Source of the DNA: Tubiluchus corallicola
Lineage: Eukaryota; Animalia; Priapulida
Reading direction: 5' to 3'
DNA length: 64,000 nucleotides
Assembly (NCBI GenBank): GCA_030141605.1
Contig: JAQGDQ010000928.1
Location: forward strand, 15,838 to 79,837
The position numbers and the translations under genes were made by a program. A model generated the notes under the pieces. It did not search any database. It was not told the origin of the DNA and saw nothing but the letters and a program-made list of their open reading frames with translations. This document shows positions 26,679-59,500 of the stretch, in pieces. The number at the start of each line of letters is the position of its first letter. Position 1 is the stretch's first letter.

Positions 26679-26771
<93 letters not shown>

Positions 26772-26842: not shown

Positions 26843-26876
<34 letters not shown>

Positions 26877-27071: not shown

Positions 27072-27160
<89 letters not shown>

Positions 27161-32425: not shown

Positions 32426-32440
32426 GGTACTTGTGACCAG
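32425..32440 (+). promoter_or_regulatory. Primer-binding site, imperfect tRNA-His-like
   Basis: TGGTACTTGTGACCAG overlaps the last LTR base; compare TGGTGCCGTGACCAG, the complement of the invertebrate tRNA-His 3' end as recalled. Confidence 0.6.
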
Positions 32441-32853
32441 TTCCGATTTTTCTACACGGAGAGAGATTCTAGTAACCTGGCTTCATTGCGTCCACAACCG
32501 CGCTGATCCAAGCAAACATGAATAAAGCTGTTTATTGACGTAATTGATCTGCCACACATCTTGACGTCTACAACTTTGTCGTGAGTACATGCACGTTCTT
32601 TCTCCACCCTAATATTTTACTTATGTACCTTTCCTGGTTGTGTCAGTGAGTGTAAGAGATAACGGTTGCTTGTATTTTAAAGTCAAGGAGGGTTGTAGAT
32701 AAACTCTAACTTGTATATCAAACATTTTGGAGGGTTGTAACTCTAACTTGAATATCAAGATATTGGAGGGTTGTAAAGATTAATCCTATAATGCACTGTA
32801 AATTGCGCAGCGCAAATAGATTTCTTAAATTTAATCTCTATTAAACTTTCTCA

Positions 32854-35520: not shown

Positions 35521-35522
35521 GA

Positions 35523-38500
35523 ATGACAGATTATACACCTTATCACGCTAAACCGTACCCTATACCTATAAATTTGGAATCAGTGGTTAAACAGGCTATA
35601 GACACTATGTTAAAGGCAAAAGTCATAGTCCCAGCTGAGAATTCTAGTTATGCAAGTCCCATTCTGTTAGTTCCAAAAAAAGATGGAGGGAAGAGATTAT
35701 GTGTAGATTTGAGACAAATCAATGCACGTACACTCCCTGACCCCTACCCACAACCGAACGTCGAAACATTATTTAAAGAATTAAAAGGTGCTAGTATATT
35801 CTCCTCTCTAGATATGACAAATGCATATTTTCAGATACCAGTTGAACCCGACAGTCAACCTTTTACAAGCTTTGTCAGCCCGTATGGCTTATTCCAATTT
35901 ACAAAAATGCCCTTTGGTTTGAAGAATGCACCAGCTACATTTTCCAGATTAGTAGACCGCCTTTCACGTGACTTAATAACACCCACGGGTAGGAGACGCT
36001 TAATTGCTTATCTAGACGACCTTGTCTGTTGCAGTCCGGATATTGAAACCCATTTTTCCGATTTAGAAGATTTATTTTTGAGATTACGGAAAGCAAATTT
36101 AAAATGCCGACCCAGGAAATGTTTTTTCTTACAAAAATCTATTAAATATTTAGGCCACGTTTTGTCTGAACAAGGCATTGCCACAGATCCGGCAAAGGTG
36201 TTAGCTATTAAGAATGTTTCACCACCCACAGATATTAAAAAGCTAAGAACTTTTTTAGGTCTAGCCACTTATTATCGCAAATTCGTCAAAAATTTTGCGA
36301 TAATAGCTGAACCATTATTAATGTTATTAAGGAAAGAAAATTCGTTTAAATGGACACATTTACAACAAGAGGCTTTTGACAAACTGAAAACAGTTTTAAC
36401 TGAAGCACCAATCTTGAAATATCCGGAGACTAATACAGGTTATATTCTCCATACCGATAGTTCGAACTTTGGCATAGGCGCTGTTCTTTCGCAAGAAGAT
36501 GCAGCTGGAAATATCGGAGTGATCGCGTACATGTCGGAAACACTAAACAGCTCACAAAGATTATGGCCTACATTTCAAAAGGAAGCATACGCCATCGTAG
36601 CTAGCTTTAGAAAATTTAAAACATATCTATATAACGCGCCAAAAATCGATGTTTATACGGATCATGCACCGTTAATTTATTTGTTTACAGGTGCTAAATT
36701 AATGAATCAATTACTGTCTCGATGGGTAGTTGAGCTATTACAGTATAATATTAATATTTATTACCAAAAAGGTTCAGAAAACACAGTTGCAGACGCGTTA
36801 AGTCGACTACCTGCATGTCCAGATTTTATAGGAACGCTCCCAATATCCTTTAGGGATTTTCAACAACAGTTTCTACAATATAATTCGCCTGAAAGATTAG
36901 CAGAGAAATATAAATACTTAGTAGATCAGAAATCTACTTCAGAGCGCAGTAAAGGTATTAAAACTACAGAGATGATTGCCCAAATCAGCCAACAAATGTC
37001 AGGTCAAACTGAATTAGAAAACTACTCAGATCAGACAATAATTAAAAAGGTACTACCTATAGAGGGTAACATTTTAGAAGAAAATATTTGGACAGGTGAA
37101 GACCCATTGTTAAACAGACCAACGGTCGAATCAGCTGGCAATGAAAACGCTCCAACTCAAATTCCATTACCAGCACAAGAAACCTCCTCATCGGACAACC
37201 CAGCCACTCAATTAGAACAAGGTGAAACTGAACATGACCTGGACGAATTCGATGGATTACCTTTAGATCTAACGACAGTACAGCAATGGCAATTATCAGA
37301 TCCTAAATTAGCACCAATTATTCATGCCTTAACCTCACCTACAGAAACTGATATTCAAACAAAACATGCAGAAAATTTCTACATTGATGAGCAGGGATTA
37401 TTGTATAAAGTTGAAAATGACTCCATTAATTTAGAACAGGAAAATTTACGGTTAGCCATTCCAGCGAAATTAACAAGTATTTTAATTAGAGGCTTTCATG
37501 ACGAATTTGCTGGACATTCTTCAGTAAAAAGAACATATGAGCGTCTGAAGAAACGATATTACTGGCCCGGCATGTTTGTACAAATTAAGAAACATGTAGA
37601 TCAGTGTTTGAACTGTCAAACACGGCGTATGAGACCGCATCGTAAACCTTTAGGTATCACAGAATTAGCCAGTAAACCCTTTGAAAATGTATATTTGGAT
37701 ATCTTAATTTTACCCCAGACAGAATCTGGTTATAAATATTTACTAGTTTTAATAGATCAATTAAGTAGCTGGATAGAGGCCTTTCCTTTAATTGATAAAT
37801 CAGCTAACTCAGTTGCTAATGTCATCCTTACAGAATATTTCTCTCGTCACGGAGCAAGTAAAACCTTTTTCAGTGATCAGGGAACAGAATTCAATAATGC
37901 TTTATTAAAAGCTTTACTAAAAGAATTCAGGGTTGTTCAAGTATTAGGAACACCGTACCACTCGAATTCACAAGGCCAAGTTGAACGCGCTAATCGCACT
38001 ATTATCCAACAATTAGCATATGTTTGTCAACAAAAGTCCACAGATTGGATTAAATATCTGCCGCATGTATTATTCGCCCTTAGAACAACTCCAAATTCAA
38101 TAACGGGGTACAGTCCATTTTTTTTAATATATAATCGCCACTGCGATTTGCCACTCGATAATATCCTTCAACTTAGATCTAAATATTACGGATCTGATCC
38201 AATTAGACTGGATCTAAATCGTTTGCATGAAGCCTTTCTGCAAACCCGACAACTGATGCATAAAAATCGTCTAGCCCACAAAAAACGCTATGATAAAAAT
38301 ACGCATATACCTCTTTTCAAAATTGGTGATCCAGTTTTCTTACGTAAAGGTAATTTAGACCCTGCTGAATCACATAAACTATGTCGACCGTGGGCCCCAT
38401 ATTATGTAATAGTTAATAAAATTGATGAATCCCGTCTTAGAATTGTCCATAATAACACAGGCAAGTTTAAAATAGTGCACCCAAACCGGTTACGAAAGGC

Positions 38501-38903
38501 AAATTTGCAAGGAAATCAATGGCTGCTACCAACAGGAACGTCGTCGCATTCCAAGCGAACTTCAAAACGAAAATCCACATTACATTACGTCCCGGAAACT
38601 CTTTCAGACACTGATTCAAATAACCTAATAAATGAGATCCAACCTGACCAAACCCCCATCGCAACCCCGCCCCCGAACTTGGATTTCTATGAAAATGAAC
38701 CCCAACCTCAACCTAACATTTCACCCAGTTCGTCAAATTCTACACTTCATTCTTTGCCAACTTTAGAACGTATAGATCCGATGGAAGAGGAGAATTTAAT
38801 TCAAACCGAAACAGATTATGCAATGCCAGTAGACAACTTAATTCCCCCCCTCGCAAACCGTTCTATAAAACGCTCATCAGACGCCGACACGCNNNNCTGG
38901 TAA
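35523..38903 (+). CDS. pol: Pol: reverse transcriptase, RNase H and integrase
   Basis: RT: YASPILLV, RLCVDLR, MPFGLKNAP, YLDD. RNase H: TDSS, KEAYA, TDH. IN: H..H..C..C, DIL/SDQG/VER and a GPY/F-like PWAPY. The end is uncertain because of NNNN at 38893-96 and may read on to a stop at 38982. Confidence 0.97.
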   Translation: MTDYTPYHAKPYPIPINLESVVKQAIDTMLKAKVIVPAENSSYASPILLVPKKDGGKRLCVDLRQINARTLPDPYPQPNVETLFKELKGASIFSSLDMTNAYFQIPVEPDSQPFTSFVSPYGLFQFTKMPFGLKNAPATFSRLVDRLSRDLITPTGRRRLIAYLDDLVCCSPDIETHFSDLEDLFLRLRKANLKCRPRKCFFLQKSIKYLGHVLSEQGIATDPAKVLAIKNVSPPTDIKKLRTFLGLATYYRKFVKNFAIIAEPLLMLLRKENSFKWTHLQQEAFDKLKTVLTEAPILKYPETNTGYILHTDSSNFGIGAVLSQEDAAGNIGVIAYMSETLNSSQRLWPTFQKEAYAIVASFRKFKTYLYNAPKIDVYTDHAPLIYLFTGAKLMNQLLSRWVVELLQYNINIYYQKGSENTVADALSRLPACPDFIGTLPISFRDFQQQFLQYNSPERLAEKYKYLVDQKSTSERSKGIKTTEMIAQISQQMSGQTELENYSDQTIIKKVLPIEGNILEENIWTGEDPLLNRPTVESAGNENAPTQIPLPAQETSSSDNPATQLEQGETEHDLDEFDGLPLDLTTVQQWQLSDPKLAPIIHALTSPTETDIQTKHAENFYIDEQGLLYKVENDSINLEQENLRLAIPAKLTSILIRGFHDEFAGHSSVKRTYERLKKRYYWPGMFVQIKKHVDQCLNCQTRRMRPHRKPLGITELASKPFENVYLDILILPQTESGYKYLLVLIDQLSSWIEAFPLIDKSANSVANVILTEYFSRHGASKTFFSDQGTEFNNALLKALLKEFRVVQVLGTPYHSNSQGQVERANRTIIQQLAYVCQQKSTDWIKYLPHVLFALRTTPNSITGYSPFFLIYNRHCDLPLDNILQLRSKYYGSDPIRLDLNRLHEAFLQTRQLMHKNRLAHKKRYDKNTHIPLFKIGDPVFLRKGNLDPAESHKLCRPWAPYYVIVNKIDESRLRIVHNNTGKFKIVHPNRLRKANLQGNQWLLPTGTSSHSKRTSKRKSTLHYVPETLSDTDSNNLINEIQPDQTPIATPPPNLDFYENEPQPQPNISPSSSNSTLHSLPTLERIDPMEEENLIQTETDYAMPVDNLIPPLANRSIKRSSDADTXXW

Positions 38904-40755
38904 GCGTGCCAGAATTAATTTAATTAAGTTGCAAAAACCAGGCATCTTTAAAACATTACGCCGAAAATTTTGCAAACAATAACTAAAATAATATTAATGT
39001 TACAGTTAAAGTTACCATGTATTATAAGGTCATACTTTAACGTTTAATATTACTGTTACAATCAAAGCATTTTTATATTATAAGGTAATACCTTAGTGCT
39101 ATAAAATAGAATAGTACCATTTTAAGGACGAGAACGTCATCAATCATGTTTCTTTATGTATAAGGTAAGTACAAGTTTTATGTATAACGAAAGTGTTTAG
39201 AGTATGAACATTTTTCGATTCCCGGGAGAGCATTTCCCGTGTGTGACGTTTAAATGTCACATACGGCATGCTTATGCATATCGAGGCTGTTCATGCAACT
39301 ATTTTATTAAAACATTTAGTACGAGTTCAAAACATTTAGTACCAGTTCAAGCCCGGACACGACTTAACACCACAAGAATATATATCGGTAAGTACATTAC
39401 GAACATTAACATGAAGCCGTCCCCCCCCCTCACTCATGACTTTACATAGAAGGCGATCAGACTTTCATTTTCTTAATTTATGACACGCGGACTCTTAAGA
39501 AGTTTCACTAAGAAACCGCGCTGAGCCACGCAGGCGTCGTGTTTCATTCATGACTTTCACTTTCGTAATTTACGACCCAGGATTCCCAAGCTTTAAGAAT
39601 ACTTCTCTCCTAGAAGCCATATAAAGATCGTGTTTCATTCCTACTGATACATGCTGGGTACATACACGGCAACGAACCATATGAGCGCTAAAAGTCTTAG
39701 CCCATAAAATGGCCCCCCGTGAATGACGCCCAATGTTATGCTTCTAAACGTCACATAAACTTACACTGGGGCTTACCACGCCTAAAGACACTCAGAGACT
39801 TTTATTTAATGCGCTTCCCTTCAGATAATGTAGCGTATAAATTTACTTAACAACTACACAAGTTCCAGAGAGGGATATTGCTTAAATGATTCAAGAATAT
39901 TTGCACAACGTTCTAATGATTGACAGAATAATTGTGTATTGCTGTAACGATTTTAAAGAATATTTCAAAAAGAGTATTTAGATATTGTTTTATCGACATT
40001 AGGAGGATATCTTACGGTATATCACTAAGTGTAATTAAATAAATACTTAACACAGCAACGAACATTTACGCTGTATTACTCTATAAAAAGAATTTCTATT
40101 CAACAAGCCCCATTGAAGTACTAGAACGAATAACCAACATATTAAACTAAGATTATAGCTAGATTAAACTCGGAATTTCTAATTCAGATAACCGACTTGA
40201 ATAAATGTATTGATCAAACGTTTTAGTCTAGAGTTTTAATTACTACAATCATTTCAAAACGGATAAAAATGACCATTTATAACTTATACATTTTAAATTC
40301 TAACGACCATTTACGAGAAAGTTAAAACCAACTAACTGTCAGAAAATATAATCCATCTCACGTTTAGCTATAATTCAACTCACCCCTAGTTAATTACGGC
40401 AAATTACGCGCATCACTAGACAATGATAAAAGATTATATATAGTCTAGACAAGTGTCTGTTAAAACCGAACGCGCGGACTCATCAACGCAGAGTATTATC
40501 ACCAAATTAGTAATTCTTCATGCAGTAGAAAAAAAAAGGTATTTTCCTTGTAGACTCTAATCAGCGAATATTCGATTATTGTATAATGACTTATGATGCT
40601 AAATACAAACATACCTTCCTTGCGATCCGCCTTGATCCATAATGCATAGTCACACTTCTATATATATATGATATGTCCACATAAAGGATAAATATTTTTT
40701 TTTCTTTTCAAATTTTAGGATTTTTTTTAAATTTTTTTTTAATTTTCCACTTTTC

Positions 40756-41310
40756 TTAGCACTTCACCGCTAACCACCTTTCTTCCGTTCCCTCCTCCCA
40801 GTTGCGTTTATATACTCTCATCACCCGTGCCAGGTCCCATATTGTTATTATGTTATGTGCCGCGGTGCAGATACAAAAATTCTCTCGGTTGATAAAGCGG
40901 ACCCGGCCGGGCGCGTATTTGGTCAGTAAATTTGCCATAACTGGCATCCCATGAATACTGCTCAGTTTTAGCACCACTAGTTCTTCCTGTAAAAGGAATA
41001 TAAATCTTTATTAAAAGTCCTCGAGACAAATTTTCTTTTAACTGCAGAATTAGCAATCTAGTGATTTTAACATAATAGTCCTTACCTCAAAAAAAAAAAA
41101 CAAAACAAAAAAAAAACCATTACTTACTCCATCAATGATGGACTTGCCGCAGAAAAGCTCGCATGTGCCAGGCAAGTACGTCATTTTTAGAGCACGACTA
41201 AGTTGGTCATGCAACTGTGCCCGTTCATCCAAAACATCGTAAAAGTTCCCGCTCGTAATTTCGAGCTCTACTGCCAATAAGTAGGCATCTCTCGGTACTT
41301 CACATTCCAT
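40756..41310 (-). CDS. Two-exon antisense accessory gene, 137 aa, unknown function (exons 41310-41128 and 40986-40756)
   Basis: aataataaaaATG start, GGA|GTAAGT donor, ttccttttacag|GAA acceptor; the phase-0 join fuses two ORFs in frame. Confidence 0.75.
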
Positions 41311-42011
41311 TTTTATTATTATTTTGAAACTAGTAAAACTGGTGAAACTAGAAAAAAAACTGAATACTTTGCACAACTGATTAAGACGCCTTGACCACAC
41401 GAACAGAAATTACGAAGAGGGACTGACCAACAACTGCAAGTCTCTTTTATGTGAGAGGCCTGGGAACTTTCGTATACTGCGTATAGAATTTGACTCCGTT
41501 TGGGCCCCAATGCTCATTACTAAGCGATAAAAGTACTAATAGTGAAAACCCTAGACGCAAAACCGAAGCTTAACGACCATTCTGATCTACAACTTATCCT
41601 GAGAAAGGGGACTGCAAAATCTTTTCCCACGGACATTAACTGGCTTTAAGAAGAAAGATGAATTGTTTTTACTATTAGCTGTCCAGGCCAAAATTATTGC
41701 AAGTGGACACGTGCTTCACTCGCCCCCCTTTGATCAACGCTGATCGGATTTCAAGACTCACCAAATAAGTCGAGATTGTTAATTGAGCCACACTTATTTA
41801 CGCATGCGCACATGCGCCAGGGATACACCTTTAAAATAACTGTCCGTTACCTACTAAATCCATTCATCCAGATTTTTCTTATAGTAAGGGACTCTGAATA
41901 GACGTTAAGATAATTTTGCCTTGAATACACATTAATCTTAATAATTTTTGCTGTGAATACATGTTAATCTCACCATCTCATAATTTGAATTTTTGTGAAA
42001 AAAAAAAGAGT

Positions 42012-44749
42012 ATGGAACTTTCAGGAAATACGTAAGTTTATCTTAAATTTATTCTAACCTTACTAATTTAGAGTCATAGAAATGATCTGTATAGGACAAC
42101 CTGAATAATATTCCTTTTGAATTTTTTTTCCAGGACCAGTACTACAAACCTTTTATACAAAATCCTAATATTGGCAATATTCTTAAATCTGTACATTCTA
42201 ATTCCTTACAATCATTCCCAAATCCAGCTCCCTTTAAAACAGGCCCAGGGGTTATATTTAAACAGAAATTAAATACTCCAGTTTCTAATGCAAGATGGCT
42301 ACTTATTGCGCCGATACAGTTGGACCACATTCAAGAATTTCTCACTAGAACGCTTTCCGAAATTCAACAATTAAGATTAATTAAAAAACCTGTCACAGTG
42401 ATTAAAGCCTTTAAAACTGCTATTAAAAATAGAATCAGAAATCAACAATTTCGTTTAAATTCCATTAAGAATTTAATAGCCTCGTCTGCCCATGAATCTC
42501 ACGTCGTCAAACGAAGCATTTTTCCGAATCTAGGAAAGGCATTCAAATTTTTAATCGGAACCGCGAGTGAAGAAGATCTTCGAAATCTTCAAGATCAGAT
42601 TACGAGTATCTTTAATACGCAACAAAACACGCAAGATATTTTAGAAAATAACCTAGCCCTTATCAATAGCTCGCTAATTCGCTCTGCTAGAAATACAGAG
42701 TTAATTTATGACTTAGTGAACGCATCAGTTCAAACTCGACATTACATTAACAAACTGTCAAAACAGTTTACTGATGACTTGACTAAAACTCAACATAAAT
42801 TGTTTACATTCTTGCAAACAAATTTGCTGTTTGATCACTTTATCTATAGCTTAGAAATCATTGATCAAGAATTGAATTCGTTATCCCAAGGTTTACATCA
42901 ACTAATTCTTAATAAATTACCCCCAACTTTAATAACCCCTATACACCTTCAAAAGTCTCTTAAACAAATTGAGGACCAGCTACCACAGAGCCTAATATTT
43001 CCAGCCGATATAAATAATCAATTATTCTATTATTACGAAACAATGTCGGCATTACCTATTCAAATTCCCGGAGGGTTTGCTATCCTAACAACATTAGATT
43101 TATATCATGTCAATCACATCTATCAAATTTTTGAAGCAATATCGATCCCAGTCCGTCGGACATCAACCAATATTAATAAACCTGTTTATCTATATAACCA
43201 AATTGATCATCAGTATATTGCTACGAATATTGAGCAGTCACTATATTTTTTCCCAGCCAAAGATGAAGCCTTTGCTTGTATTCAAAGCCCAAAACGTATC
43301 TGTAAGTTAGCACCAACGCCAATTTTTCCTGCAGATAGAATAGAATCATGTACAGCGGCATTGTTTTTCAAGGACACTATTAAAATAGATTTATTTTGTG
43401 ATCAACGAGCAAGAATTATTAATAAACTTGGACCAGTTATTATACCTCTAACTGAGAATACTTATTATATTAGCCCGAGTTTTGAAATTCAAGCCATAAA
43501 ATCTTGTTACGTACCCCGCCAGGCTCATAAGATTGGCACCCCCCTCACCATCAAGAACCCGATGATCCTGCAGTTAGAATCAGGGTGTGGCCTATCTTCT
43601 AAATATGCAAATTTACCAATATATTTTAAGAATCATTCAGACCTTACTTTAACTCAAACGGACATCCAAACAATCTTAGATACGGCACTTAATTTAAGTA
43701 CTTGGAACGTTGATTTATTAGGAAGTAATTTTACGATAGGAACACTTCAAACACTGCAAGCTCTGCCGTCACGAATGACAGAGGATGAACCACTTGACTT
43801 TTCTCTTAAAGGTAGTCAAAATCTCTTATTAAAACGACAGAAGTTTTTGGACCACACTGATGAATTATTCAAAACCAAACCGGTTGACTTTTCCAATCAT
43901 AAGGGTGCATCATTGACAACATACTTATTTATAGCACTTATTATAATCTTTATTATAATTTATGTGACTTGTCGTACGAAAATTAAGACAGCATGTTGCC
44001 CCCGTCTTATAAACACCAAACCAACTTCTACCAAGGCTAAACCACCCCGCGGTACCCATTCTAACAAACCCAATACTCCGCCTATGACACTTCACCCTAA
44101 CCCAATGACCCGTAATAGACTTCCTCAATACCAGCCTCCCAAGGAATTTATCAAAAAACCCGAACCACGGGAACCAATTGTTCGTTATAACCCAAATAAC
44201 GATTCTGTTGATTTCGTATCCGTCTTTACATTCCATTCAAGAACAGTAAAACTTCGTTTATTTCTTTTATTCTATAGTTTTACCCACGAGGCCGAAGATC
44301 ACCTTTCGAAAATAGATGACAGCATAGATAAATTTCTACAAGAACTTAACGAAACCTACGAAGTCAATTATAACTTGATTCGTAACCTTTCAACACCTGA
44401 GACACCCCAAACGCCCCAATCCAACTCCACCTATGAGAATACTGAACAAATTATGCCTTTAACCTTTTCCCTCGCACCAGACACTCCGTTATCTCCCCAG
44501 GAAATATATCACTTTTTAAAATCACCACTTCCACCAATCCCAGACTCGTTAACAGCTGCTTCCAAAGACACACAGACTGACTTGACTTGTCAACCCAGCG
44601 AAAAAATTGTTTTTACTACAACTAAACTGTCACCCACTGTTTGTACTAAACAGACACAGACAGAATTTTCGTTTCCACCAGATCTTCTTGTTCTTGTGAA
44701 ACGCCCTTTATCGGAAAACGAGTTCTTTCATAAATTCGCTCCCATATAA
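42012..44749 (+). CDS. env: Envelope glycoprotein, class I F-type (leader exon 42012-42031, acceptor at 42133, -1 shift near 42235)
   Basis: Signal-like LLYKILILAIFLNLYILIP, GVIFK...W motif, VVKR|SIFPNLGKAFKFLIGTASEEDL cleavage site and fusion peptide, heptads, Cys cluster, TM YLFIALIIIFIIIYV and a long tail. Confidence 0.88.
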
Positions 44750-44809
44750 TTTATATAAAGTTTGATTCAACGCTAATTTGTGATGTATAGATATGTTTCA
44801 TTTTGCAGC

Positions 44810-44968
44810 ATGAATACGCTACGATCTAACCCCCCTACCGACGAAGTTATATCACGTCGCGCGTATATTACAGTCGTACTTTTGACACTACTTGTATTCT
44901 GCATAATAATAACGGGAATACTGTTTGCAGTCTGGGAAAGAAAATGTGAACTGCTGGGAAAACAATAA
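44810..44968 (+). CDS. Small single-pass membrane protein (52 aa)
   Basis: ttcattttgcag acceptor 1 nt before ATG; RR-AYITVVLLTLLVFCIIITGILFAVW-ERK. Confidence 0.55.
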   Translation: MNTLRSNPPTDEVISRRAYITVVLLTLLVFCIIITGILFAVWERKCELLGKQ

Positions 44969-45419
44969 AAGGGATGAAGAATTGAAATGTTGCCTTGAAT
45001 AATATATGAGTAATTGTATAATGAGTATGACTGGATACCTTAACCTATTTTCCATATATCATTCTTTCCTTTTTTACCTTAACCTTAAAACCCTGCCTAG
45101 CACGTGCAAGAAGCCAGCCGGCTTCATCTCAACAAGACAGCTATCGACCGCCGGAAGTCAGCACGGAAATCCATCGTACACACCGAGCGACGCAGCCAAG
45201 CCAAGCCAGTGATCATAGTAGTACACAAACTTTGCAGCTGTCTTTGCTAATGTTTGCTAATCGCTCTAGAACTAGTCTACGTAAACTACAGAACAACTAT
45301 TTTGTGAAATTGTGTAAACCAGAGCCCTAGTTGATATATGGTGAACAGCATCAAAGAAAACTTTGTTCCGGTGAACAGCATTAAAAATAACTTCGTTCTA
45401 CGTTTCATTTACCAGTGCA

Positions 45420-45779
45420 ATGAAACTAAATATGAAACTAAATATTCGAGTATTAGCAACTTACACATATCAAAAACCACCTTTCAGGAAAACCTACTAC
45501 CTCGTAAATTATAAAGGAGCTCAGTTTATTATCTTAGAATTACTACATACGAAATATTTTAGAAGATATCCGTTGAGTGTAATTAACTTTAAACCGTACT
45601 TTGATCGATATTTAACAATGAGGATGATTAAACATCGTGTTTCGCAAAATGTGAATCAAGCAACTGTACCTACTATAAATTGTCAGGACTTTATAAATTG
45701 TCAGGACTTTATGCGCTGTCAGAACTATTTTAAACACTTAATGGGAGAACCACATATTTGTGTCGACGATATAATTTAA
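45420..45779 (+). CDS. Basic, aromatic-rich accessory ORF (119 aa), unknown function
   Basis: ATG-initiated ORF after the acceptor cgtttcatttaccag (45415), inside the element. Confidence 0.55.
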   Translation: MKLNMKLNIRVLATYTYQKPPFRKTYYLVNYKGAQFIILELLHTKYFRRYPLSVINFKPYFDRYLTMRMIKHRVSQNVNQATVPTINCQDFINCQDFMRCQNYFKHLMGEPHICVDDII

Positions 45780-45874
45780 AAGAAACCTTTAGACTAACAT
45801 ATGTTGATGGTGCAAGAACATTCGGCCTTCGCTACATTATAAAGACGTTTAAAACGTTGTGTAATTGTTTAGCC

Positions 45875-46741
45875 ATGTCAGACACGGTTATACAAAGCTG
45901 CCTAGTCTGTTCTGCAGCAGCTTTCATTAAACACTATGGCAAATTAACGTGTAACGCGTGCCGCTATTTTTTTTACAGAAAGCAGCACGTTAAAAATGTA
46001 TGTTCTAAACGTGGCTGTGTTGGAAATTGTCGTATTACCCCAGACACCAGACGTCATTGTCAACTTTGTAGATTTAACAAATGTATAGCCGTTGGTTTAC
46101 AGCCAACTTCACCTCGTTTTGGGAGGTCATCTAAATCTCGTCAGAATCGTCTCAAAGCTAAACTTAATTATCGGGTCAAATCTATTAACCGGATGGCAAA
46201 CCAACTTCTACCTGTCGCCGTAAGAATCACAATTCAGAAGGCATGCCAACAACCCGAATTACAAACATTACCTGTCGAAGACCAGAAAATTCTACTAAAA
46301 TCTGGCGCTCCAAGTATAATTCTAATTTGGCTAAATACACTTATTAATTTCGTGTCGCTTGCCCAAGAATTAGTGCCGCAACATCAACTCAGTGATTTCG
46401 ATGAGTTTACACAACAACTTTATAGAACTGCACAGGCGATTATGCTAGTTAGACCAACGCAAGACGAGTTGGAAATCTTAACAAACATCTTACTCTATGA
46501 CTCAACTTGCCTTAATTTACAACGTCCAGACCGAGTGGCTCATTTTCACTCTCGGTGGATAGAACGATTTAATTGTGAAATAGCACTTCACTGGCCTTCT
46601 AGATTCACCTCGCAAATGGGGGCTTTAAGCAACTTCCAGGCTTTATATCAAGCAGTAATCGCTTTTGCGACACGACTGAAGTCTGTTCAGCTCAACTTGG
46701 ATCAAAACACTTGTTTTCAGACAGAGGAAGAGAATGAATGA
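45875..46741 (+). CDS. Intronless nuclear hormone receptor (288 aa from GCCATG), NR1-like, carried by the retroelement
   Basis: C-X2-C-X13-C-X2-C-X13-C-X8-C-X9-C-X2-C-X4-C with HYG, FF.R and CRFNKCIAVGL; RFGR box; LBD signature PELQTLPVEDQKILLKSG. Confidence 0.93.
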   Translation: MSDTVIQSCLVCSAAAFIKHYGKLTCNACRYFFYRKQHVKNVCSKRGCVGNCRITPDTRRHCQLCRFNKCIAVGLQPTSPRFGRSSKSRQNRLKAKLNYRVKSINRMANQLLPVAVRITIQKACQQPELQTLPVEDQKILLKSGAPSIILIWLNTLINFVSLAQELVPQHQLSDFDEFTQQLYRTAQAIMLVRPTQDELEILTNILLYDSTCLNLQRPDRVAHFHSRWIERFNCEIALHWPSRFTSQMGALSNFQALYQAVIAFATRLKSVQLNLDQNTCFQTEEENE

Positions 46742-46744
46742 AAA

Positions 46745-47440
46745 ATGAATAACATTACTGTATACTTATATTTTGAACTTTAAGAATAATGTTCAACATT
46801 TTGATCATTTTGATACAATTTTAACATGGAGATTCAATGAATAAATGAATAACATTGTGTGTTCAATGTATAATATGATGTTAAAGGAATAATATTGAAT
46901 AACCGTGTGTATTCATATATGATGTCAAATGAAAGATATTGAATGACACTGTGTACTTATATTATGGATGAAATGATGAAATATTGAACAACCGTGTGTA
47001 CTTATATAGGATGTCAAATGAATGATTGTGTATGTATATTATGAAATGATGAATAACGTTGTATACTTATATTTTGAAATGCGTCCAATAATGTTGTGTT
47101 CCTGTATTTTGAAATGAAATGTTGGATAGTATAATGTTGATTTTGCACGACGTGTGTATTTATATTGTATAATGATTGATGATTCATCGATGTCAGATTG
47201 TCATTTATACTTTTATGACCGTGATGGATGACGGATGATTTATTGATGCAGATTGTCACTTATATTTTATGACGGTGACTAATGATTCAGATTGTCACTT
47301 ATATTTTATGACGGTGACTAATGATTCAGATCGTCACTTATATTTTATGACGGTGATTGACGACTCAGGTGACGACTCAGGTTGTCATTGATATCGTTTG
47401 ATAATGATTGATGATTCAGGTTGTCAGCTGATGACTTATA
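46745..47440. repeat. Degenerate tandem repeats (about 45-50 bp, then 36 bp) in the element's 3' UTR
   Basis: tgaataac..tgtgtacttatatt and gattgtcacttatattttatgacggtgactaatgattca units. Confidence 0.75.
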
Positions 47441-48105
47441 GCTGATGACATATATATATATCTATTTTGCCTTGATTTACGTAAATTTATATCCTGACTT
47501 GACTTGTATTCGGAATGGTATTTTAAATGGTATCAGTTGAACTCATATAATTACTCCTATAACTATATATCTCAATAGCATAGTTGATACGATAAAGAAA
47601 ATCGATTAGGATAGTATACTGCATGATTGGACCTATACACTCGTATATTGTGCGCTTACTTATATAGTTTGCATATATATATTAGAAACTCTGATAAATG
47701 TTACACGTATGTATCAACTGTGTGTTTAATAATATTTGTATATCTCATTAGCCTAGTTATACTTACTAAGGATGATAACATGATAAGGAAAATTGCTTGC
47801 TATACTAGATTTAACCGGTATACCTCACCTGTCCATATTACTGTTATCAATGTTGTAAATGTATAGTTTAGTATAAGGACGAGCAAGCCTCGTGCCTCCA
47901 TACTCACAAGGACATTCGGATTGCCTAGATATTTTAATTAGATATTTTAAATCAGATATTTTACTTAGATATTTTAACTGGATATTTTACTCACATATTT
48001 TAAAAATCAGATATCTTAAATCACATATTGGTCATGTATTTTAGACAGATGATATAATATTAAAATTATCTAATCTGCCAGCCCCGAGGGAACTAACTTC
48101 CTTTT

Positions 48106-48116
48106 AGGAAGAGAGG
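48106..48116 (+). promoter_or_regulatory. Polypurine tract
   Basis: AGGAAGAGAGG directly before the 3' LTR, preceded by a T-run. Confidence 0.9.
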
Positions 48117-48589
48117 AGTAAAGAGAAGATGATAATTGTATGATTAGTATTAGCAGTTCAGAAATGAAACGACTCTATGAAGGGGATATGAGAGATATGT
48201 AGAAATGAAGCCATGATTTTAGGTGCGGCTGTCATGTGACTGAGTTCCATATATGGACATTGCCCGTCTGAATTGTCAGACTAGCAACAATTATAACGCA
48301 TGCGCTGTGAGTCCAAAAAGCTGAAGGAAGCCAAGTGGAATGGGAGATCAGATCACGGGGGAATCTCGAGGAAGCAGGAACAGATCTTGGGCGGTTCGGC
48401 AGAGCTATGATATGTACTTTACCATGTAATATATTATTGTGAAATAAATGTGTTAGTCGCTCATCAATCCAGGTCTTATAGCTTTGTCACCACCTCACGT
48501 CAATAAACGGCTGCGGCCTCCTCAATAATCCACCAACAAGTACTACCACTATACGACTCAGCTCATAAACATAACATATAAATTTTACT
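48117..48589 (+). repeat. 3' LTR (473 bp)
   Basis: Direct repeat of 31953-32425. Confidence 0.95.
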
Positions 48590-51500
48590 CGAATTTGTAA
48601 GTAAGCAAAAAATAGCTACAAGAGCCAAACTGTAAACTGAAAAGTTAAAGGGCATCTTGCGAATTTTCTCAATGTGCGCCATTTTCCAGCGTCTGTCTGC
48701 GCCAGTAAGTGGCGTACTCTACAGGCATTATTTTGTAATTTTTGTTTCTACTTCGAAACGCGGCGCAACCAAGCAAAGCAGGTAGCAGTATATACAACAA
48801 ATATGGGAACGTAGAGTAATTTGAAATAACGAAAAAGGTGACGAGTTCGACAGATTTAGGAGTACAGCAGATTTGGCGGTACAGCAGGTTTTGCCGGCAT
48901 GACAGGATTAACAGTATGGCAGATTTGTCAGAATGGCGGTATGGCCGGTTTGGAGGTACAGCAGGTTTGGCAAGTAGGACAGGTTTGACAGTAAGGCGGG
49001 TTTGGCAGCATGGCGGGTTAATAAGTTGACTTGATAGTAAGCATTTGTTTTACTTATACACGTCATTTGTTCTCTTGTTCTTTTGTTTCCATTTAATTTC
49101 TTTACTCACTCACTCAAGCAAAAAATTAATCATTGATTGACTAACTGCTTAAATAAGTGGCTGGTTAACTAACCAAATCAATGATGAGTATTTATTTAGT
49201 ACTTAATATCAAAGGTGAAATCATTTCCAACTAACTACTGTTTTTGCAGCTCAAGCTAGATCATTGTTTCAAGCATTTTTTAGTGATTTAGTTCGTATTC
49301 TAAGAAACATATGGTTCTTAAGCTAATTTGAAATGATTCGAGATCTACCCAATATATCTTATGTACCCCGACGAAGGATTCTTTTAAGATGCGATAACTT
49401 GGATCTAAAGAATTTTATTTGATTTTACAACAGAATTAGTGTGTTTTGTGAAACTCAAGTAGCTAAACTCAGAGGCTGTAGATATATTTCTTAATTTTTT
49501 TGCTTTCTCGCCAGACTTCGAAACCCAATCTCCTGTATTCTGGAGAGTTTTATATTTAGGCTACCCAATATACTACTACAGGTTTACGATAGATGTAGTT
49601 CTTTACAAATATGAACAAAGCTAGCTATAATGAGATCATTGATCAGCTTAAATGTTTTTATGCCGTATGCTATAGAGCACTGATTGGATATTCACTTCCC
49701 AGTGCCTGCCGGTGCCATAATTATGGTAATTATCAGTTATTAAGTATTGAGATTTGTTCCCAATATCATTACCAACCCTTCACTTCATGCACCGTGTTTT
49801 CATTTTAAATCACCCGCAATACTGTACAGACGGTGCGATTACCTGAAGTCACTACACAAACGTAAATCAGGGGAAGAAAAGGAAATGTTAAATTATGTCA
49901 CAAAAATTTTATGTAAGTGGAGGGTTTCTTGTGCTTTTTATGGAAAATAATCAGTTGCCTTAGTTGCTCTTCTTGCACTTGTTGCCTCTATAGCCAACGT
50001 TGATATCATTTAGCCTTGTTGATCTGTAACTACTCGAGTAGAGGATTTGCAGGATGTTCCCATATAACCCGAGTAACACAGCTCCAATAGTACCATGACT
50101 TACAATATAACAACTTCCATGACTGAAGTCTCCATTAGTCCCACCAAGATAAGAATCGTAAACATGCTATAAGCTAACCAACTGAATAGAAATTGTGCAG
50201 CTCACTGCCATTTGAACAGAACAAATTTCTTTACCTAATCTCCACAGGTATTGCCAGGTATGACTATCTACTCAGGCGGGCAGCTACTGCCCTCTAGTAG
50301 GAAAAATGGTAGACTGTTGTAGCAGACTGTCACACAGGTTTCAGAAAATTGCCTTAAAATTTTTTACTGCTTTACAGCAATTTTGTGTATTTATCGTACT
50401 GAAGGAAATTTTTGTTTGTTTTCATTTTAAATCTACCACTACATGACGTCACTAATACAAACGTAAATCAGCGAAAGAAAAGAAAATGTTAAATTATGCC
50501 CCAAAATACTTCCATAAAACCCTAACCTTGCTTTTCCTGTTTCTGGAAAAAACTATTTTTCTGGAAACAGACTGTCCAGTCCTTTTTTTTTCTTTTGTAC
50601 ATTTGAACATTTGGATGTACTCTATAAATTATGCCAAAATTAAAAAACAAGGCATTAAATTTAACAATGGAATCAATTTTTAGGCACAATTCATCCCTAT
50701 CGATTCAAAGCATTCGCTGAAATCACATATAAAACATATTATTTATAAAAATTTAAATAATTGGCATTGTTCCTAAAATTAGATGCAATTACCTCAATCA
50801 TGATGCTAAGACGCTATTATATTACTCATTATAATTCACCCTATTTGTAGTACAGCATACGTATCTATGGATTCAGCAGAAACATCCATCTTGCATTCAT
50901 CGATTAATGATAAAAGTAAGTTTATCAAACTTATAACAAAGATTCAGTGTAAACACCGATTTATTATCAATTATGTTCATAAAACTGAAGAACATGCATC
51001 AGCTAAAACTGACAAAATTTTTATGTTCAATCACCACAGGCTTTTCGATTTATTGCTAAACTACAATCATCCTGTGTCTCATCTTATACATTTTATTTTT
51101 TATTTATGAAATACATCCACAACGATCATTACAGCATTGCACTTAAAGAATTTAATAACATATTGATTATTATGTACACAAGATGCCAAGCTGCAAATGA
51201 CCCTTGGTGTACTCAAGAATTAGTTACTTGTTGGGAGCACTCTTAGTGAATGTCGATTAAGTGAAGTAGAGAAAAGCAGCAAAGGAATAGAAACGGAAAG
51301 TTAATAGAGAATAGAGAGAAAGTGAAATATATTATGGTATCTGTATGAAGTAATGCGAACTATAGAAATACAATTATCGACATAGCCAGCAATTTGATGG
51401 ATTCCAACAGGGCAGCAGTGTAGTAAGCCAAATTTATTTATTATATATAATTAGAAAAGATTTTACTTTGAAAATTTCAATTCTTGTTATTTATAAATAG

Positions 51501-51799: not shown

Positions 51800-52450
51800 T
51801 CATTGTAGAGAGTTTAATTCAAAAAGAGATGAATGGTAGTTGTGCCCCCAAAGTATATTACAGTAGATTAAAAATGTCAGTACTAGACAATTGTAAAATA
51901 TGATAAGATGTTCTTTAGAAATACAATGTTTAACTCGACTGATTAACCCGATGTTTTGAGCAATTTTAGAAATAATTATATTTAAGTGTGGTTTCCAATC
52001 AAAGTGTTCATTTAACATAACATCTAACAACTTGATTTCGTTTATTTGTTCTACAACACCACCATAAATTTTTATAATACAGTTCATATTTATAGGTTTG
52101 TTACGAGCTCTGAATAAAATATATTTAGTTTTTTTTAATGCTAATTTATTGATTATAAACCAGGCTGTAATTTTACTATTAATGATGTTAGTGTCCAGTA
52201 GCTTGTTGTTGATCTTGAAGAAAATTCTTGTGTCATCAGCAAATTGGCATCTTTCCATTGTTAGTAATACAGTTTTGTAAGTCATTATTGTATAATGAAA
52301 ACAACAGAAGTTCCAAAATAGATCCCTGAGGTATCTATGTGTGACTATTGCTTCATTGGAAATGACATTGTTACGTTTGACTACTTGAGTTCGACCCTTA
52401 TGGTAATTAGCAAACAACGAGTATGCAACCCCTCTAATGCCATAGTGAAG
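51800..52450 (-). mobile_element. Truncated, degenerate non-LTR (CR1/L2-like) RT fragment
   Basis: HYGIRGVA, FADDT, WFIINKL..KKTKYILF, L.YCNILWG. Confidence 0.85.
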
Positions 52451-55227
52451 TATTCAATGCGTTTCAACAATCTTCGCGAGTATTAAACAAGTTTTGTTTC
52501 TAAGCAGACATACTGTGTACCCACTATGAAAGAAAAAAATCTCTAGACTCAAATTGTTTGCTTTGAAACAACATACCAGCAGAGCTTAAAAATGGAACCT
52601 ATAGTTACATAATGCACAAATATGAGTCTACACTTATGCCTAACTACATAGATAAGTATCCGAGCTCTCGCTATTAGATGGCATTTTGCTAATTATATTC
52701 ATTATTTCTGTTTTCATTAAGCCATTATAATATTCTTTTAACATGGTTTTGCATTGCACTGTGTTTTTTCATTTGTTTTCTTTTCACAGCTAAAAAGAAG
52801 GAAAATGTTAATGCAGATTCATAATTAAAAAAATACAGTTCTTCACATGCTGTTTTATTTGTTTTGTTGATTTTTCTTCCATATTTCTTACATATTTGGT
52901 TGCATATTGTTCTTATTGATATATATTACTTATTTTAATCATTTTCGTTAATTGCTACTACCCATGTTGCTCTCGAAACAAAGTCGATTTGTTTTTTCCT
53001 CAATTTTTTTCTTTAATTGTCTATATTCATTGTATATTGTTTGTTACTATTATATTTCTATTCTATATTCTGTTGTCATATTTTTTAAATTATCACTTAT
53101 TTATTATTTCTCTTTTAATTTTTGCTGTCTTAATTTTTTATTAATTTTATGTGAAAATAGTAGTTTATTTGATTTTCCTTTGCTACCCTTTCTCATACAC
53201 TTCTAATGACACATTTCTTTATTTTTTTCATACTCATACTGCTTGTAATTATTATTTTTACACTGTAAACTGTGTACTTGATAAAATAAAAATGTCTGAT
53301 TCTATTTCAAACGAAATGAGCAAAATAGTAGTAAAGATTTTTTTCGTTTTAAATTGTGTCCTGTACAAAATCAGTGATTTCGTTTCTTAATTTTACTCAC
53401 ATTTTAGGTGCTTCGAACAGAGTTTTAGTTATCTAGCTTGGAAACTAAGACAGCACATCATTGTACTCGACAGAGAATGTACAATAAGCAGACAATCTTT
53501 TTTAAATTATTACTTCAAATAATATACAGCTGATAGAACAATATTTGACAACACCCTTAGTAACAGTCGAAATATTTTCACACCAGCAAGGCAATATAAT
53601 GACAAAAATTGAAATGTTTTGAATAAAGTGCCAATTTGTTTATTTACAGGTTATTATGAGTGGAGCTTCAAACAGTTCATGTGGTTAAAAGTCACTTTAA
53701 AACCTGAAACATTTCACATATTCTACCTACTGTGTCTCACTGCAACGTTGGAAACGTCTAGGAAGCCACAATTACGACAAAATTCGTCTTTTTCTTGAAT
53801 GAATCATGTGCAATGTTGCAAAAAATCAGTTGACTCTGAAATATAACAGACTTGGTCAGATTGATGATTATGTTGAGTATGTATACGGCGTATTGAAGTC
53901 AATTTAAGACATGCATCAACCGACATGTTTTGCAATTTGCTGGAAAGCCGTAAAGAAAGATGGAATTGACAGCAAAACATTTCATGTAGAAGCAGCTCTA
54001 AGAAAATTGATAGAAGCTACAGCTGACAGTTCTGTTCCTTGGAACTTAATACATGATGAAAGAAATTATATCGTATTTATATTGATATGCCAAGATAGTG
54101 AGAAAAAGTTCAAAACCGTCTAAAATGGAGTGAAATCGACATACGTCTATTCAGAGAGCAAATAATCATTGTGGAGTGTCACTAATCAAAAAAAAAGAAA
54201 AACTGATGATTATTGTTAATGATTAATTGATTTTAAAAGGCCTGCAAGAAACACTCAGTTACACTGTTGCTTCAGTGATTAGTGTATTTCACGTTGTCAG
54301 ATTGAGTAAAGCATCTGTAAGTATGTGTAAAAGCTTGCAATGGAAATCTTTTTTGATTTTATATGGGACTTTGTGCTTTGCATAAAAAGACAATACAAAT
54401 TTGTTGTTCAGCATTGTTCACAAGGTATGTGTTGCATATAATTGAGTGGCATGACAGACCCACAATTATTTAATGAACATAGTAAATTGTTTTGTACTAT
54501 GACTTTTTGTTTCTGTTTTATTGTCTTTACATCAATAAAAGTTTAATTAGTAGATTCATTGAATTAGTGCTAATGCTACCATGTTGAAGTCAGAAAAATC
54601 TAAAAGTGTCAGACAGAACTGGGTGTAATCAGCAAGATGTAGACCGTGAGGAGAAAAGCTGCCTGGTAAAAAAAGAACCATAAACAAACAAATAAACAAA
54701 TTAATCAGAAAGTTTCATTTAATAACAAAATATACAAGCATATTTCGCATCAAATTGTGAGATACACAGAAAATTTGTCAACACGTCATCACTGCTTTGA
54801 ACACAATGAAACTTGAATGACAGGTATTTAAAACTAGGATGGTAATATTGAAGCCAGATGTCAGCACCTTACAGGCAAGAAGAGGAAAGTAATCTAAACA
54901 AAAAGCACCTCTAATTATTATTAGTTATATTGTTAGAACAAACTTTTTTGGTTATTTAATAAACAAAAATATTCAACACCTGGTAGTTCAGGTCAGTTGC
55001 TCAGGGTCTCCCTGTATTTTTTGGAGAAAAACTGCTTGCCAGAAAAAAACTTCGCAGAAAGAAATTTGTTAGATTTTTTTTCCTGGAAAACTTTTTCTCA
55101 GGAAACTTTTTTCCTTGGAAATCGTTTCACAGAAAAATCATTTCCTACCTTCTTCCTACCCCTCATCTCTCACTTGCTCTCTCTGCTTGGCTGTCTCTCT
55201 TTTTCTCTCTCTCTCTCTCTCGCTCTG

Positions 55228-55260
<33 letters not shown>

Positions 55261-55624
55261 GTATTTTGTAATACAAATTGTGTATTGTGTACTGTGAAAA
55301 CGAACAACACCAAAATAATCTATCTAAACTGTATGGAGATATTACTGACATACTAAAAGTTTCAGCCACTATCAGTATTCCAGGGATGCGACTTGAGTCT
55401 AATGTAAGTGTCCATGTAAGACGATACCTGGTTGGAATGACTACGTTGCAGATATTCTCCTCAGTGTTTCCTTGCATGGCACATAAATGGTAAGTCTCAT
55501 GGCTACTTAGCTGTCCAGACGGACTTAAAGGTGAACATTTCTGTAATGCATCCCATTTGCTGGCAATCATTTTGGTGCTGCTATTCACGTCCTGTGTAAC
55601 ACACAGTTACCTGCCACATTTGTT

Positions 55625-56570
55625 AATGTTATCTGAACTAGTACCTCTCGTTAAAGACAAAAATGGGGATATTACAGACAAAAACAACTATAGACCTATC
55701 GCTCTTTGATCTGTAGGAAGCAAAGTTATAGAAATACTGCTTCTAAATCGTTACAGTTCTTGTTTGAGTACCACGCCAAACCATTTTAGTTTTGTTGAAA
55801 ACTTAGGCACAGAGATGTGCATCCATGCTTTAAAAGTGGTGCTTGACTATTACATTAGTCGACAAAGCACTGTACATATTCTGTTTATTGACGCATCAAA
55901 AGCGTTCGACAGAGCAAGATATCTCAAACTGTTTCTTAATCTTATCAGTCCTAACATACAAATGTAGTAACTAGATTTTTGGTTTTTTATTACATAAAAG
56001 AACGTATGTTGGTTAGATAGGGTAAATTTAACTCTGATGGTTTTGCAGTAGGTAACTGAATTCGTCAAGGTGGAAAAATGTCTCCACTGTTATTCAACTT
56101 ATATTTTAAAAATCTTAGTGCTCCTAGTGGGTTGTCATATTGCTGAAACCTGCATTAATCACTTGATGTACGCTGATGACATATGTCTTTTAGCAACAAC
56201 CTCGACGGCTTTACAGAAACTGCAAGATATTTTTAATAAATTTGCTAAAATATATGATATTCTTCTAAGTGTGAATAAGACTAAACTTGTCACGATTCAC
56301 TCCGCCCACATGCAGCAGTTTACTTTTGGGTCTGTTGTTTTGCAGAGTAAAAAAGAAAAATATCTGGGTCATAAAGACAATAGAGTAATTAGACATATTG
56401 CGACAATATTCAATTTACTATGGCAGAGCAAATAAATTACTCATGAAATTTATTCACTGTTCAGTTAACTTGAAGAGACAACTGTTTAATGCTTACTGCA
56501 CTACTTTTTATTGTATGTCCACTTGGAGACATTTTTATTATTACAATCTTACCAAAACACAATGTTGCAT
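55625..56570 (+). mobile_element. Degenerate non-LTR retrotransposon RT fragment
   Basis: LVKDKNGDITDKNNYRPIAL, FIDASKAFDR, HLMYADDICLL and KYLGH across stops and frameshifts. Confidence 0.85.
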
Positions 56571-59500
56571 ATAATGTATCAAGACGAAAGCATTTTAACT
56601 TATTATCTTATTTGCTTTGATGTCATACTGTTTGCACTTTAGGCTAAATAACATTGAAAATTTTATATGCAAAAGTTTTTTAAACAGTGATGTATACTTT
56701 ACTTGTGTAATTAGACATTATTGGCGCAATTTGTTATATCGCTAAATGTTATGTGTGCTATTGTTGTGTGTCATGGTTTATTATATTATTTGTATTAATT
56801 TGTGATATGTATATGAAGTTTGTAAAGTTTGAAATAAAATATTAATACTAAAATCTAAATCCCCCAATTCTCTATCACCTTCTCCTTCTTTCCCTTTCAC
56901 CCCTTTCTCCCTCCTGTTTTTTCCTCTATCTACCCATTGGTCCTCTCTCTTGCTTTTCCTCGTTCTTTTTCTGTCTGCTTCCACTAGTTATCTATTTAAT
57001 GTTTAAAGTAATTCCTCACAAACTTTTCTTGGACATTATGTTATAGGGTAAAAGTTTTATTAGGCAAAACATGCAATTCTTTTGTTTCGGATAAACTTTT
57101 CATCTACATTTTAGAGTCTGTTGAAAACATTTTAGATATTATGAAAGTAAAACAAAATGTCCAGTTGTTCTGATGAAATTTTTCATGGCACTTTATAATT
57201 ATGGGGTAACAAGTGAATATTCATCAGCTCTTCACTCATTATTACATAATACAAGCAGAGGCTATTATTAACACCATAAACGGTAATTTTCGTTGCCGTG
57301 TGATGAGTGTTCACAGAATGTAACAACAGCATGTGCTGACAGTGAGCAGTACTCCACATTTGAATAATATTATGCTTTACGAAAAATGAAAAAATAATAA
57401 AGACCGTTTTGGTGTGTTTTTTTTGAAATGTTGGATAAATTTACAACTGTACTTTTCTCTTGCGTAACACTCAGTTACATGAGTAGAACTGGTGATAAAT
57501 TTTGTGCGTTTCACTTGTTAATAATTCTGCGCATGTCCTACCAAACCTTCAGCATTTGAAAAATCTGTTGCAAGTAAACAAATTCCCAAAAACAATGCTA
57601 TGAATGATAATTTACTGTTCAACTTCTGTTGCTTCCAATCATGCTGGGAGGGCTGCTTGTCAATTCAATAGCTGAGCAGGGCAGACCTTCTTGCAGCTAG
57701 TGGTCACCTTCAAGTGCAACCTTCATTTCGTGGCAACATGTGCCTTTCAATTTACAAAGTTGGAGTTATTTGAAGACTTCTTACAAATTCTAGTGCAGAA
57801 AAGAATGCTGTACAATTTATGTTTGAACAGTTTTAGATACAATCTAACATTTGGAAACTATAAGGTTTTGAAACGAAATTATTTTGAAAAATCTACATAC
57901 ATTTCGTATCATACTGTTAATTACTAAACTAAATAAAAACATTTTAATAATTTTATTTACAGCGCTAGAAAATCATTAGCAGACAAAAAAGGATATGCTT
58001 GATCTAGGAACATATATAGAACTTCCGTTCCGCTTGTGTTTCGTACAAAATGAACGCAAAAACAATTAGCTATTCTGTGTTCAAAATAAAAGAATGACTT
58101 AAGCACAAACTAGAGGAGTTCTTATTATTTGTTCAAAATGCGATTTAAACGTTTCGCGTTCATTTTTGTTCAAACTTTCTTCATTTTGTTCTTTGCCAAA
58201 GTCATTTTTTGCATTCTGTTCATAGTCCAAGTATTACACGAAGCACCTAGGTAAGATGTAAACATACCACCACAAAATCATACGTTTTGCTTTTTTCACG
58301 AAATGGGTTTATTGACCTCTAATATTGATGCTAAAAAGGTCAGACGTAAACAAAACAAGCCCAAAAATAGCCAAAAAGCAGTTTTTATAATTGCACTGTT
58401 AGTTCGGCTGGCGTATGTATGCAAAAGTAGGTCGTAATTGCAAAGTTTAAAACGCAGCTTGTAACTTAAATGCTGCAAAAGGTTGTGCACAATTCAGGTA
58501 TCTTCTGTAATGGCCCTTGCATACAGGGGCAGACCATAGGGGCCAATTAATGGTAGTCGCTGCTAAGATCGATCAGTTCCTTGGCCGAGCTAGGGTCACT
58601 AACCGACTGCCCACTAGAGAAAACAGACAATAGCTGAGCCTAGGCAGACTCTACGGGGGCTCTACCTAAATAACATGGATTCTTTTGTGGTGTGATGAAT
58701 GAAAAACAGGCTTTTTAACTATACCTCAAAAATCAAACTGTCAGCAGTCAAAGAAGTAACAAGATATTAAGTTTAATGACACAATATAAATACCAAACAG
58801 TCATTAAATTTAGTTATCTGCAAACAATGGAAATTATTAATATGCAAAAGTGAATCTGAAAACGCTACTAAACAGCATGGCATGAAATGAATGCAATGGC
58901 AAAAGTCATACAGTGTTCCTAACTATTTAAAGGGGTTCTACTTACTCTACCAGCCACACTTGAACGCGTACGCTAGCATAATATATTCTGCAGACAAGTG
59001 TAGTTTGCGGTCATAGTCCTTTAGAACGACTAAAGTATGGTTCAGACTTCATCTAACGGGTTCACGACTCCCACAGTAACGACGCAAAAAGTCTGAGAGA
59101 AACGTAGTCAAATGTTTAACATAAGTCTATCAAGACGTGTGAACGGAGCTGTAGGCACACATGCGTTCGGTAATTCACATCACAAGTTCTCCCTCTGGCG
59201 CCAATTAACGATAACGTAAGTAAACAGGTACCTTTGTCGTCCGGTTTATTGGCATAAAGTTCCTACCTGGGCGGTGACGACTTCTCCGTCCCATGCGATG
59301 GACTATCGAGCTGGGCACCTTTCCAACTGCACGACGGTGCTCTCACATGATCCGAAACGACATCTTCCCGGCATGGTAAGATTAGCAAAGCCATGTAAAC
59401 CAATGAGTGGACATCTTCCACCACCACAAATAGATCATTAAATTTTCAAACGTCAGCTAATGGACAATCAGGTAAAACGTAAAAACGCAGTTTAACCAAC

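Follow-up and report, generated by a model that had tools for sequence, protein, structure and literature searches.

The question raised by this locus is why an intronless nuclear receptor gene should lie within an LTR retroelement, and whether it works for that element or has only been carried into it. The 64-kb stretch of DNA that was analysed (the window) contains a 16,637-nt LTR element of the Ty3/gypsy type, at positions 31953–48589, with an ORF in the gag position, pol, an F-like env and a nuclear receptor ORF (Table 1). The position of this last ORF within the element, the two receptor domains in its product, its presence in other copies and the excess of silent changes among its variants are direct observations, and we think it highly probable that the receptor is an element-borne gene maintained by selection. 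With moderate confidence we propose the fuller reading, that an env-bearing Ty3/gypsy element has captured a receptor which is under selection and likely acts as a hormone-independent repressor or dominant-negative regulator.

Table 1. Features of the element, in window coordinates
Feature	Position	Strand	Basis or remark
5′ LTR, 473 nt	31953–32425	+	AGT...ACT ends; TGG-starting primer-binding-like site immediately 3′
gag-position ORF, 445 codons stop to stop	32845–34182	+	gag label by position alone
Protease, RT, RNase H, integrase	34167–38903	+	Pfam; three frames in the window copy
pol–env spacer, 3.2 kb	38904–42094		Contains possible antisense two-exon ORF
F-type env-like frame	42095–44749	+	Without own upstream start; Baculo_F match below cut-off
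52-aa ORF, one hydrophobic helix	44810–44968	+	3′ of env; acceptor-like site before it
Nuclear receptor ORF, intronless, 288 aa	45875–46741	+	Pfam, profile, alignment, model
3′ non-coding region	46742–48116	+	Tandem repeats, then polypurine tract at end
3′ LTR	48117–48589	+	470/473 identical to 5′ LTR

The pol domains stand in the order protease, RT, RNase H and integrase, which is that of Ty3/gypsy elements (Pfam E-values: RVP, 9e-5; RVT_1, 3e-32; RT_RNaseH_2, 3e-30; Integrase_H2C2, 2e-17; rve, 4e-10), and the best pol relatives among the matches listed come from many taxa and are at most 46 % identical. Paired LTRs, a primer-binding-like site and a polypurine tract are all present; the ORF in the gag position has no Pfam gag match, and no tRNA genes were found within the 64-kb window. 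In the window copy the pol frame is broken near 34.5 and 35.5 kb, and a gap of four Ns lies near 38.9 kb, at the end of pol. Contigs from public sequencing runs differ from the window copy by small indels at a number of places along the element, so that the frame breaks may have arisen in assembly or belong to this copy alone. A stretch of about 240 aa (about 36750–37450, + strand), partly acidic and of low complexity, separates the RNase H-like match from the zinc domain of the integrase; a bridge region is described in the available part of a survey of metazoan errantiviruses (PMC13524379). The env frame matches Pfam Baculo_F over aa 100–642 (E 1.6e-4) at 20.8 bits, against a cut-off of 24.1, and it has acceptor-like sites near its 5′ end, a dibasic site and a transmembrane helix, a strict RxxR motif being absent. 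The small ORF 3′ of env gives only weak Pfam matches (E about 0.06).

The counted identity of the LTR pair, 99.4 % with three differing sites, agrees with the figure given in a preliminary description of the locus. No target-site duplication was found in the window copy, whose flanks differ (31944–31952 and 48590–48600), so that it cannot be called an intact single insertion. Together with the N gap, this means that the two halves of the element may stem from different copies, by recombination or by a join at the gap, in which case the identity of the LTRs dates the family and not the insertion. A short purine-rich stretch, like the tract 5′ of the 3′ LTR, stands at the end of the left flank.

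The receptor ORF is open from ATG to stop on the sense strand of the element, about 1.1 kb past the env frame and 1375 nt before the 3′ LTR, and its stop-to-stop frame is 335 codons long, whereas 500 shuffled versions of this region never gave more than 167. Residues 8–76 match Pfam zf-C4 at 54.1 bits (E 2.3e-14), above the cut-off, and the best solved-structure matches of the product are the DNA-binding domains of nuclear receptors. Two C4 zinc fingers are present, with nine cysteines that are invariant across a 29-row alignment, and an RFGR motif lies directly past the second finger. Coordinates, zf-C4 match and RFGR motif thus all agree with the original claim of an intronless, sense-strand receptor ORF between env and the polypurine tract and 3′ LTR. 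The P-box reads N-A-C-R-Y, as against E-G-C-K-G in most rows of the alignment, and the first cysteine is at aa 9, with no N-terminal activation region. Just before the receptor is a 134-codon stop-to-stop frame (45375–45779, + strand) with no Pfam match, probably a chance product of a repeat-containing spacer.

A ligand-binding-domain signature had also been claimed for this ORF. Pfam bears out the zinc fingers only, the Hormone_recep match (15.4 bits, E 0.014) falling below the cut-off of 23.5 bits, but a profile made from 24 receptor ligand domains aligns over most of the domain and scores the C-terminal part of the product at 35.5 bits, whereas none of 2000 shuffles exceeded 10.6, which upholds the signature. 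The model predicted from the 29-row alignment has a mean pLDDT of 82, while a single-sequence model (pLDDT 36) was uninformative. Model residues 105–272 match RXR-alpha 265–436, which we take to be helices 3–11 by RXR numbering, with Z 15.3 and rmsd 5.0 over 162 aligned residues, and LXR-beta with Z 15.5 and rmsd 4.9 over 164; this likeness is partly circular, as the model was built with receptor homologues. The top fold matches, which include LXR, TR, RXR and PXR, are tied within Z 1. The fold covers about aa 105–278, the last modelled helix ending at 278, with neither a separate helix 1 nor an AF-2 helix (helix 12), and is followed by a short, acidic tail that is disordered in the model. A cysteine occupies the column of the helix-3 clamp lysine in the 29-row alignment, and neither this lysine nor the hydrophobic-Glu motif of helix 12, the two marks of AF-2, is found in the model or the alignment. 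As modelled, then, the ligand-binding fold is real but minimal.

Other copies of the element were surveyed in contigs of public runs, three of which (X1, X2 and X3) come from one sample and the fourth (X4) from a second study. Two further runs, X5 and X6, gave no matching contigs and weigh neither way, and no RNA run was listed among those that contain the region. An X1 contig of 598 nt (45576–46173) bridges the spacer and the receptor ORF with no differences. Depth in X1 is 60.7 in the receptor ORF bin and 65–97 in the env bins, and the contig depth in X2 is 1078–1144 for the receptor ORF, 805–1041 for pol and 939 for env. In the X1–X3 sample the ORF is about five times as deep as the flank contigs, although contig depth does not equal copy number and 'about five copies' is a rough estimate. 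Given the bridging contigs and a depth equal to that of pol and env in one sample, most young copies of the element likely carry the receptor ORF, and that the ORF belongs to the element family and is no one-off insertion is borne out by read depth and bridging contig alike.

The gene is nevertheless dispensable for at least some copies. A joint that deletes 859 nt of the ORF occurs in X2 and X4, that is, in both studies, and represents a loss and not the state before capture, since the last codons of the ORF are kept. Depth in the receptor ORF bin of X4 is 14, where most of pol has 169–177 and env reaches 206; X4 is uneven elsewhere also, with 13 in late pol and 7.8 in the spacer, and may or may not contain many receptor-less copies. 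In one diverged contig of X2 the zinc-finger region is interrupted by gaps that break the frame; this contig rejoins the element spacer upstream (joint at 45815–45868), so that at least one diverged copy is in an element context. The expectation that other copies would have the ORF thus holds for the near-identical family and fails for some copies in which it is deleted or broken. The same contigs leave almost no room for a misjoin of the receptor ORF into the element during assembly. Suspicion of such an artefact might be raised by the N gap, by the missing target-site duplication and by the fact that no single run contig spans the element, or even the part from env to LTR; the gap, however, is 7 kb away on the upstream side of the ORF, and X3 and X4 contigs run across it. 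Spacer and ORF are linked by independent short-read contigs, and the deletion joint connects the spacer with the 3′ end of the ORF in two studies.

Older variants of the receptor ORF, about 85–90 % identical, are found in X2 and X4, representing both studies. Only contig stretches at least 80 % alike to the ORF were compared, and in these the diverged contigs show 20/178, 24/249, 21/204 and 35/279 differences. Forty of the 160 variant sites are listed; 26 of the 40 are silent and 14 change an amino acid, none creates a stop, and 25 are third codon positions. With the sites scored one at a time and pooled over lineages, this exceeds the neutral silent expectation of 0.22–0.30 (p at most 4e-6) and gives a pN/pS of 0.15–0.23 for these 40 of the 160 sites. 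The region of the ligand domain (46406–46684) has 11 silent sites among the 17 listed. As read from the sequences, this pattern shows purifying selection on the receptor ORF among the variants, although part of the signal could be host-gene history, one diverged contig alone being placed in an element context. The suggestion that the gene has been kept under selection therefore stands on the variants, with pN/pS about 0.2; the argument from 99.4 % LTR identity on which it was first based is weak alone, as an element with an N gap and no target-site duplication may combine two source copies.

The silent bias would have another meaning if the receptor were a recent passenger from a fast-evolving, intronless host receptor family, for it would then reflect selection on host paralogues. 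The diverged copies are seen in run contigs only, deleted and frameshifted copies exist, and there are many divergent receptors with odd P-boxes among the protein matches, all of which would suit a passenger. We nevertheless consider this unlikely, because the near-identical family carries the full ORF at element depth and one diverged contig joins the element spacer. The codon-position composition of the ORF is also close to that of pol and env (GC3 0.34 as against 0.29), in host DNA that is AT-rich too.

No close relative of the receptor was found at E 1e-30 among 4125 matches (E 0.001) in 1.84 billion protein representatives, and none of 421 candidates passed in a word-based protein search with the receptor ORF. 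The viral contigs searched held no relative of the ORF, nor did metagenome contigs searched with a two-row alignment; with a wide alignment, 80 of 277 confirmed metagenome loci were examined and none had element gag, pol or env, a weak test in which only 22 were of at least 4 kb. The word-based protein search, repeated with the two-row alignment, returned only P0139 and six receptors that match in the zinc fingers; five of the six are named NR1I3. P0139, a 316-aa protein from a 2046-nt Logan contig, is the only full-length look-alike; it is 24 % identical to the receptor ORF product over 306 columns and is the best over the ligand domain among 150 matches (25.5 bits, with 18.1 for the next). 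It groups with the receptor ORF with SH-aLRT support of 99 and 95, both sequences being on long branches that may have been falsely joined. One of these trees, built by a quick method, comprised 27 of 45 rows, those left out being mostly long-branch or redundant.

In topology tests on 19 rows, with group labels partly assigned by reading sequences, the p-AU value was 0.49 for a placement with NR1C/D/E/F-like receptors and 0.16 for one with NR2/6-like receptors, and a grouping with NR1H/I/J-like receptors was present with support of 84. The trees put the receptor ORF in neither NR1D nor any other subfamily with support, and so the phylogeny against NR1–NR6 that had been called for, run on these 19 rows, did not yield a single-subfamily clade. 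It is plausible, as was first suggested, that the gene was captured from a spliced host mRNA, although the protein searches found no host donor gene and the trees assigned no subfamily. A separate cluster, P0134, comprises 28 zinc-finger receptor proteins of 220 aa with a non-canonical P-box, encoded on ENA/Logan contigs of up to 19 kb, and is possibly another intronless or mobile receptor family.

In the mechanism that we propose, the receptor was likely captured long ago from a spliced host mRNA and would now be expressed either by splicing of an LTR transcript, the route that env must take, or by a promoter of its own within the 0.9-kb spacer. The donor-like sites in the LTR and leader and the acceptor-like sites near the env start make spliced subgenomic RNAs likely; the site before the receptor ATG failed the acceptor filter, which makes an internal promoter as open as splicing for this gene. 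In nuclear receptors, a changed P-box on intact fingers directs binding to a new half-site, and a receptor that has lost AF-2 and the clamp lysine does not recruit ordinary coactivators. In the element receptor the intact zinc fingers and the basic extension would be expected to contact DNA, and the half-site would differ from AGGTCA since the base-reading residues of the P-box are changed; the protein would recruit no ordinary coactivators, the AF-2 helix being missing and the helix-3 clamp lysine replaced. By binding DNA without such recruitment it could occupy the sites or partners of host receptors, and so tune when and where the element or host targets are transcribed. If the receptor is indeed an element-borne, selected gene, its sequence and model somewhat favour a repressor or dominant-negative mode, although the replaced helix-3 lysine would weaken corepressor binding too.

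The main rival makes the receptor the element's own transactivator, binding the LTR or the 3′ repeats and acting through its acidic tail or a host partner, much as Tax or Tas switch on their elements in complex retroviruses. Selection on the ORF, a position beside the 3′ LTR like that of retroviral accessory genes and the acidic C-terminal tail would all fit such a role, as would TGTCA-containing motifs, three in the LTR and eight in the 3′ region, although these lie mostly inside tandem repeats that inflate such raw counts. A model lacking the AF-2 helix and a protein lacking an N-terminal activation region argue in the other direction, as does the absence of AGGTCA half-sites from the LTR, which says little since the P-box is non-canonical. 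We rate a transactivator as a rather unlikely but serious candidate. Much fainter is the prospect that the receptor still responds to a steroid or lipid ligand of the host and thereby ties element activity to moulting or reproduction: the ligand-binding fold has been kept, with the same silent bias as the rest of the ORF, and its top matches include LXR, TR, RXR and PXR, but neither helix 1 nor the AF-2 helix is in the model and the fold may be kept for dimerisation alone.

Several known systems invite comparison with the repressor or dominant-negative regulator proposed here. Rev-erb and other NR1D-type receptors lack helix 12, and they have an RFGR extension after the fingers and a ligand domain that ends at helix 11. 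The element receptor shares this extension and this ending, and departs from the NR1D type in its changed P-box and in having no hinge and no helix 1. The v-ErbA protein of avian erythroblastosis virus, which has lost AF-2, is likewise a nuclear receptor borne by a retroelement, although v-erbA arose recently as a fusion with gag, in a tumour virus that is defective and depends on a helper, and is close to its host gene. The receptor described here is, in contrast, a separate ORF with its own ATG in an element that keeps gag, pol and env, no close host relative was found for it, and its variants show purifying selection. A separate ORF beside gag, pol and env does not fit an acutely transforming capture of the v-erbA type, in which a cellular gene is fused to viral genes or replaces them. 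Among 500 matches counted in predicted viral structures, the avian erythroblastosis virus fusion with v-ErbA (BFVD Q64895) is the only one with E ≤0.001, and v-ErbA is described, in the part of the source available, as mainly repressive, a constitutive repressor (PMC2194726).

The capture of genes by retroelements is already known; it is a receptor cargo, together with a selection signal, that we did not find described for Ty3/gypsy elements, and the literature searched, mostly outside subscription journals and listed by title and abstract start, describes no LTR retrotransposon with a receptor in it. LTR elements of bdelloid rotifers carry extra ORF3s, for a GDSL esterase and a DEDDy nuclease, which according to the available part of the source are also family-specific captured genes 3′ of pol and show no significant departure from neutrality (PMC5408684). 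Those ORF3s encode enzymes that replace env, whereas the present element keeps env and has a transcription factor in addition. As far as the available part of the survey goes, metazoan errantiviruses have in common with this element the order LTR, gag, pol and env, the env being F-type in the survey and F-like here, and several near-identical copies, and a priapulid assembly was among those screened; neither 'nuclear' nor 'hormone' appears as a word in its text or in the seven supplements searched (PMC13524379). The element described here differs from them in adding a fourth, probably host-derived gene for a transcription factor.

Errantiviruses have been taken to have three genes, and a selected, host-type transcription factor would be the fourth. 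We suggest, tentatively and at slightly less than even confidence, that a lineage of enveloped retrotransposons has long encoded its own minimal 'viral receptor', which rewires host hormone-controlled transcription or switches the element itself, with P0139 as a second member. If so, such elements would be the complex retroviruses of invertebrates, regulating transcription themselves beyond borrowing host factors through the LTR, and would be a vehicle for the spread of intronless receptors with odd P-boxes among animal genomes. The protein would be a natural minimal receptor with a predicted new DNA specificity, and its element a testable source of divergent intronless receptors in invertebrates.

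The spacer between pol and env contains a possible antisense ORF of two exons (61 and 76 aa; 41310–41128 and 40986–40756, minus strand), whose GT and AG boundaries were assigned by eye and which has no Pfam match; its second piece gives a weak WD40 lead (atlas score 0.94; PDB E 1.4), and the ORF could be a second captured host fragment. Outside the element, decayed fragments at 51800–52453 (minus strand) and 55494–56574 (plus strand) resemble non-LTR reverse transcriptase by eye. Minisatellite arrays with periods of 9 to 96 nt occupy 6700–9300, 13200–19200, 26600–27300 and 62900–64000, and a 329-codon open frame at 17358–18347, for which there is no credible Pfam match, is made by the 96-nt array.
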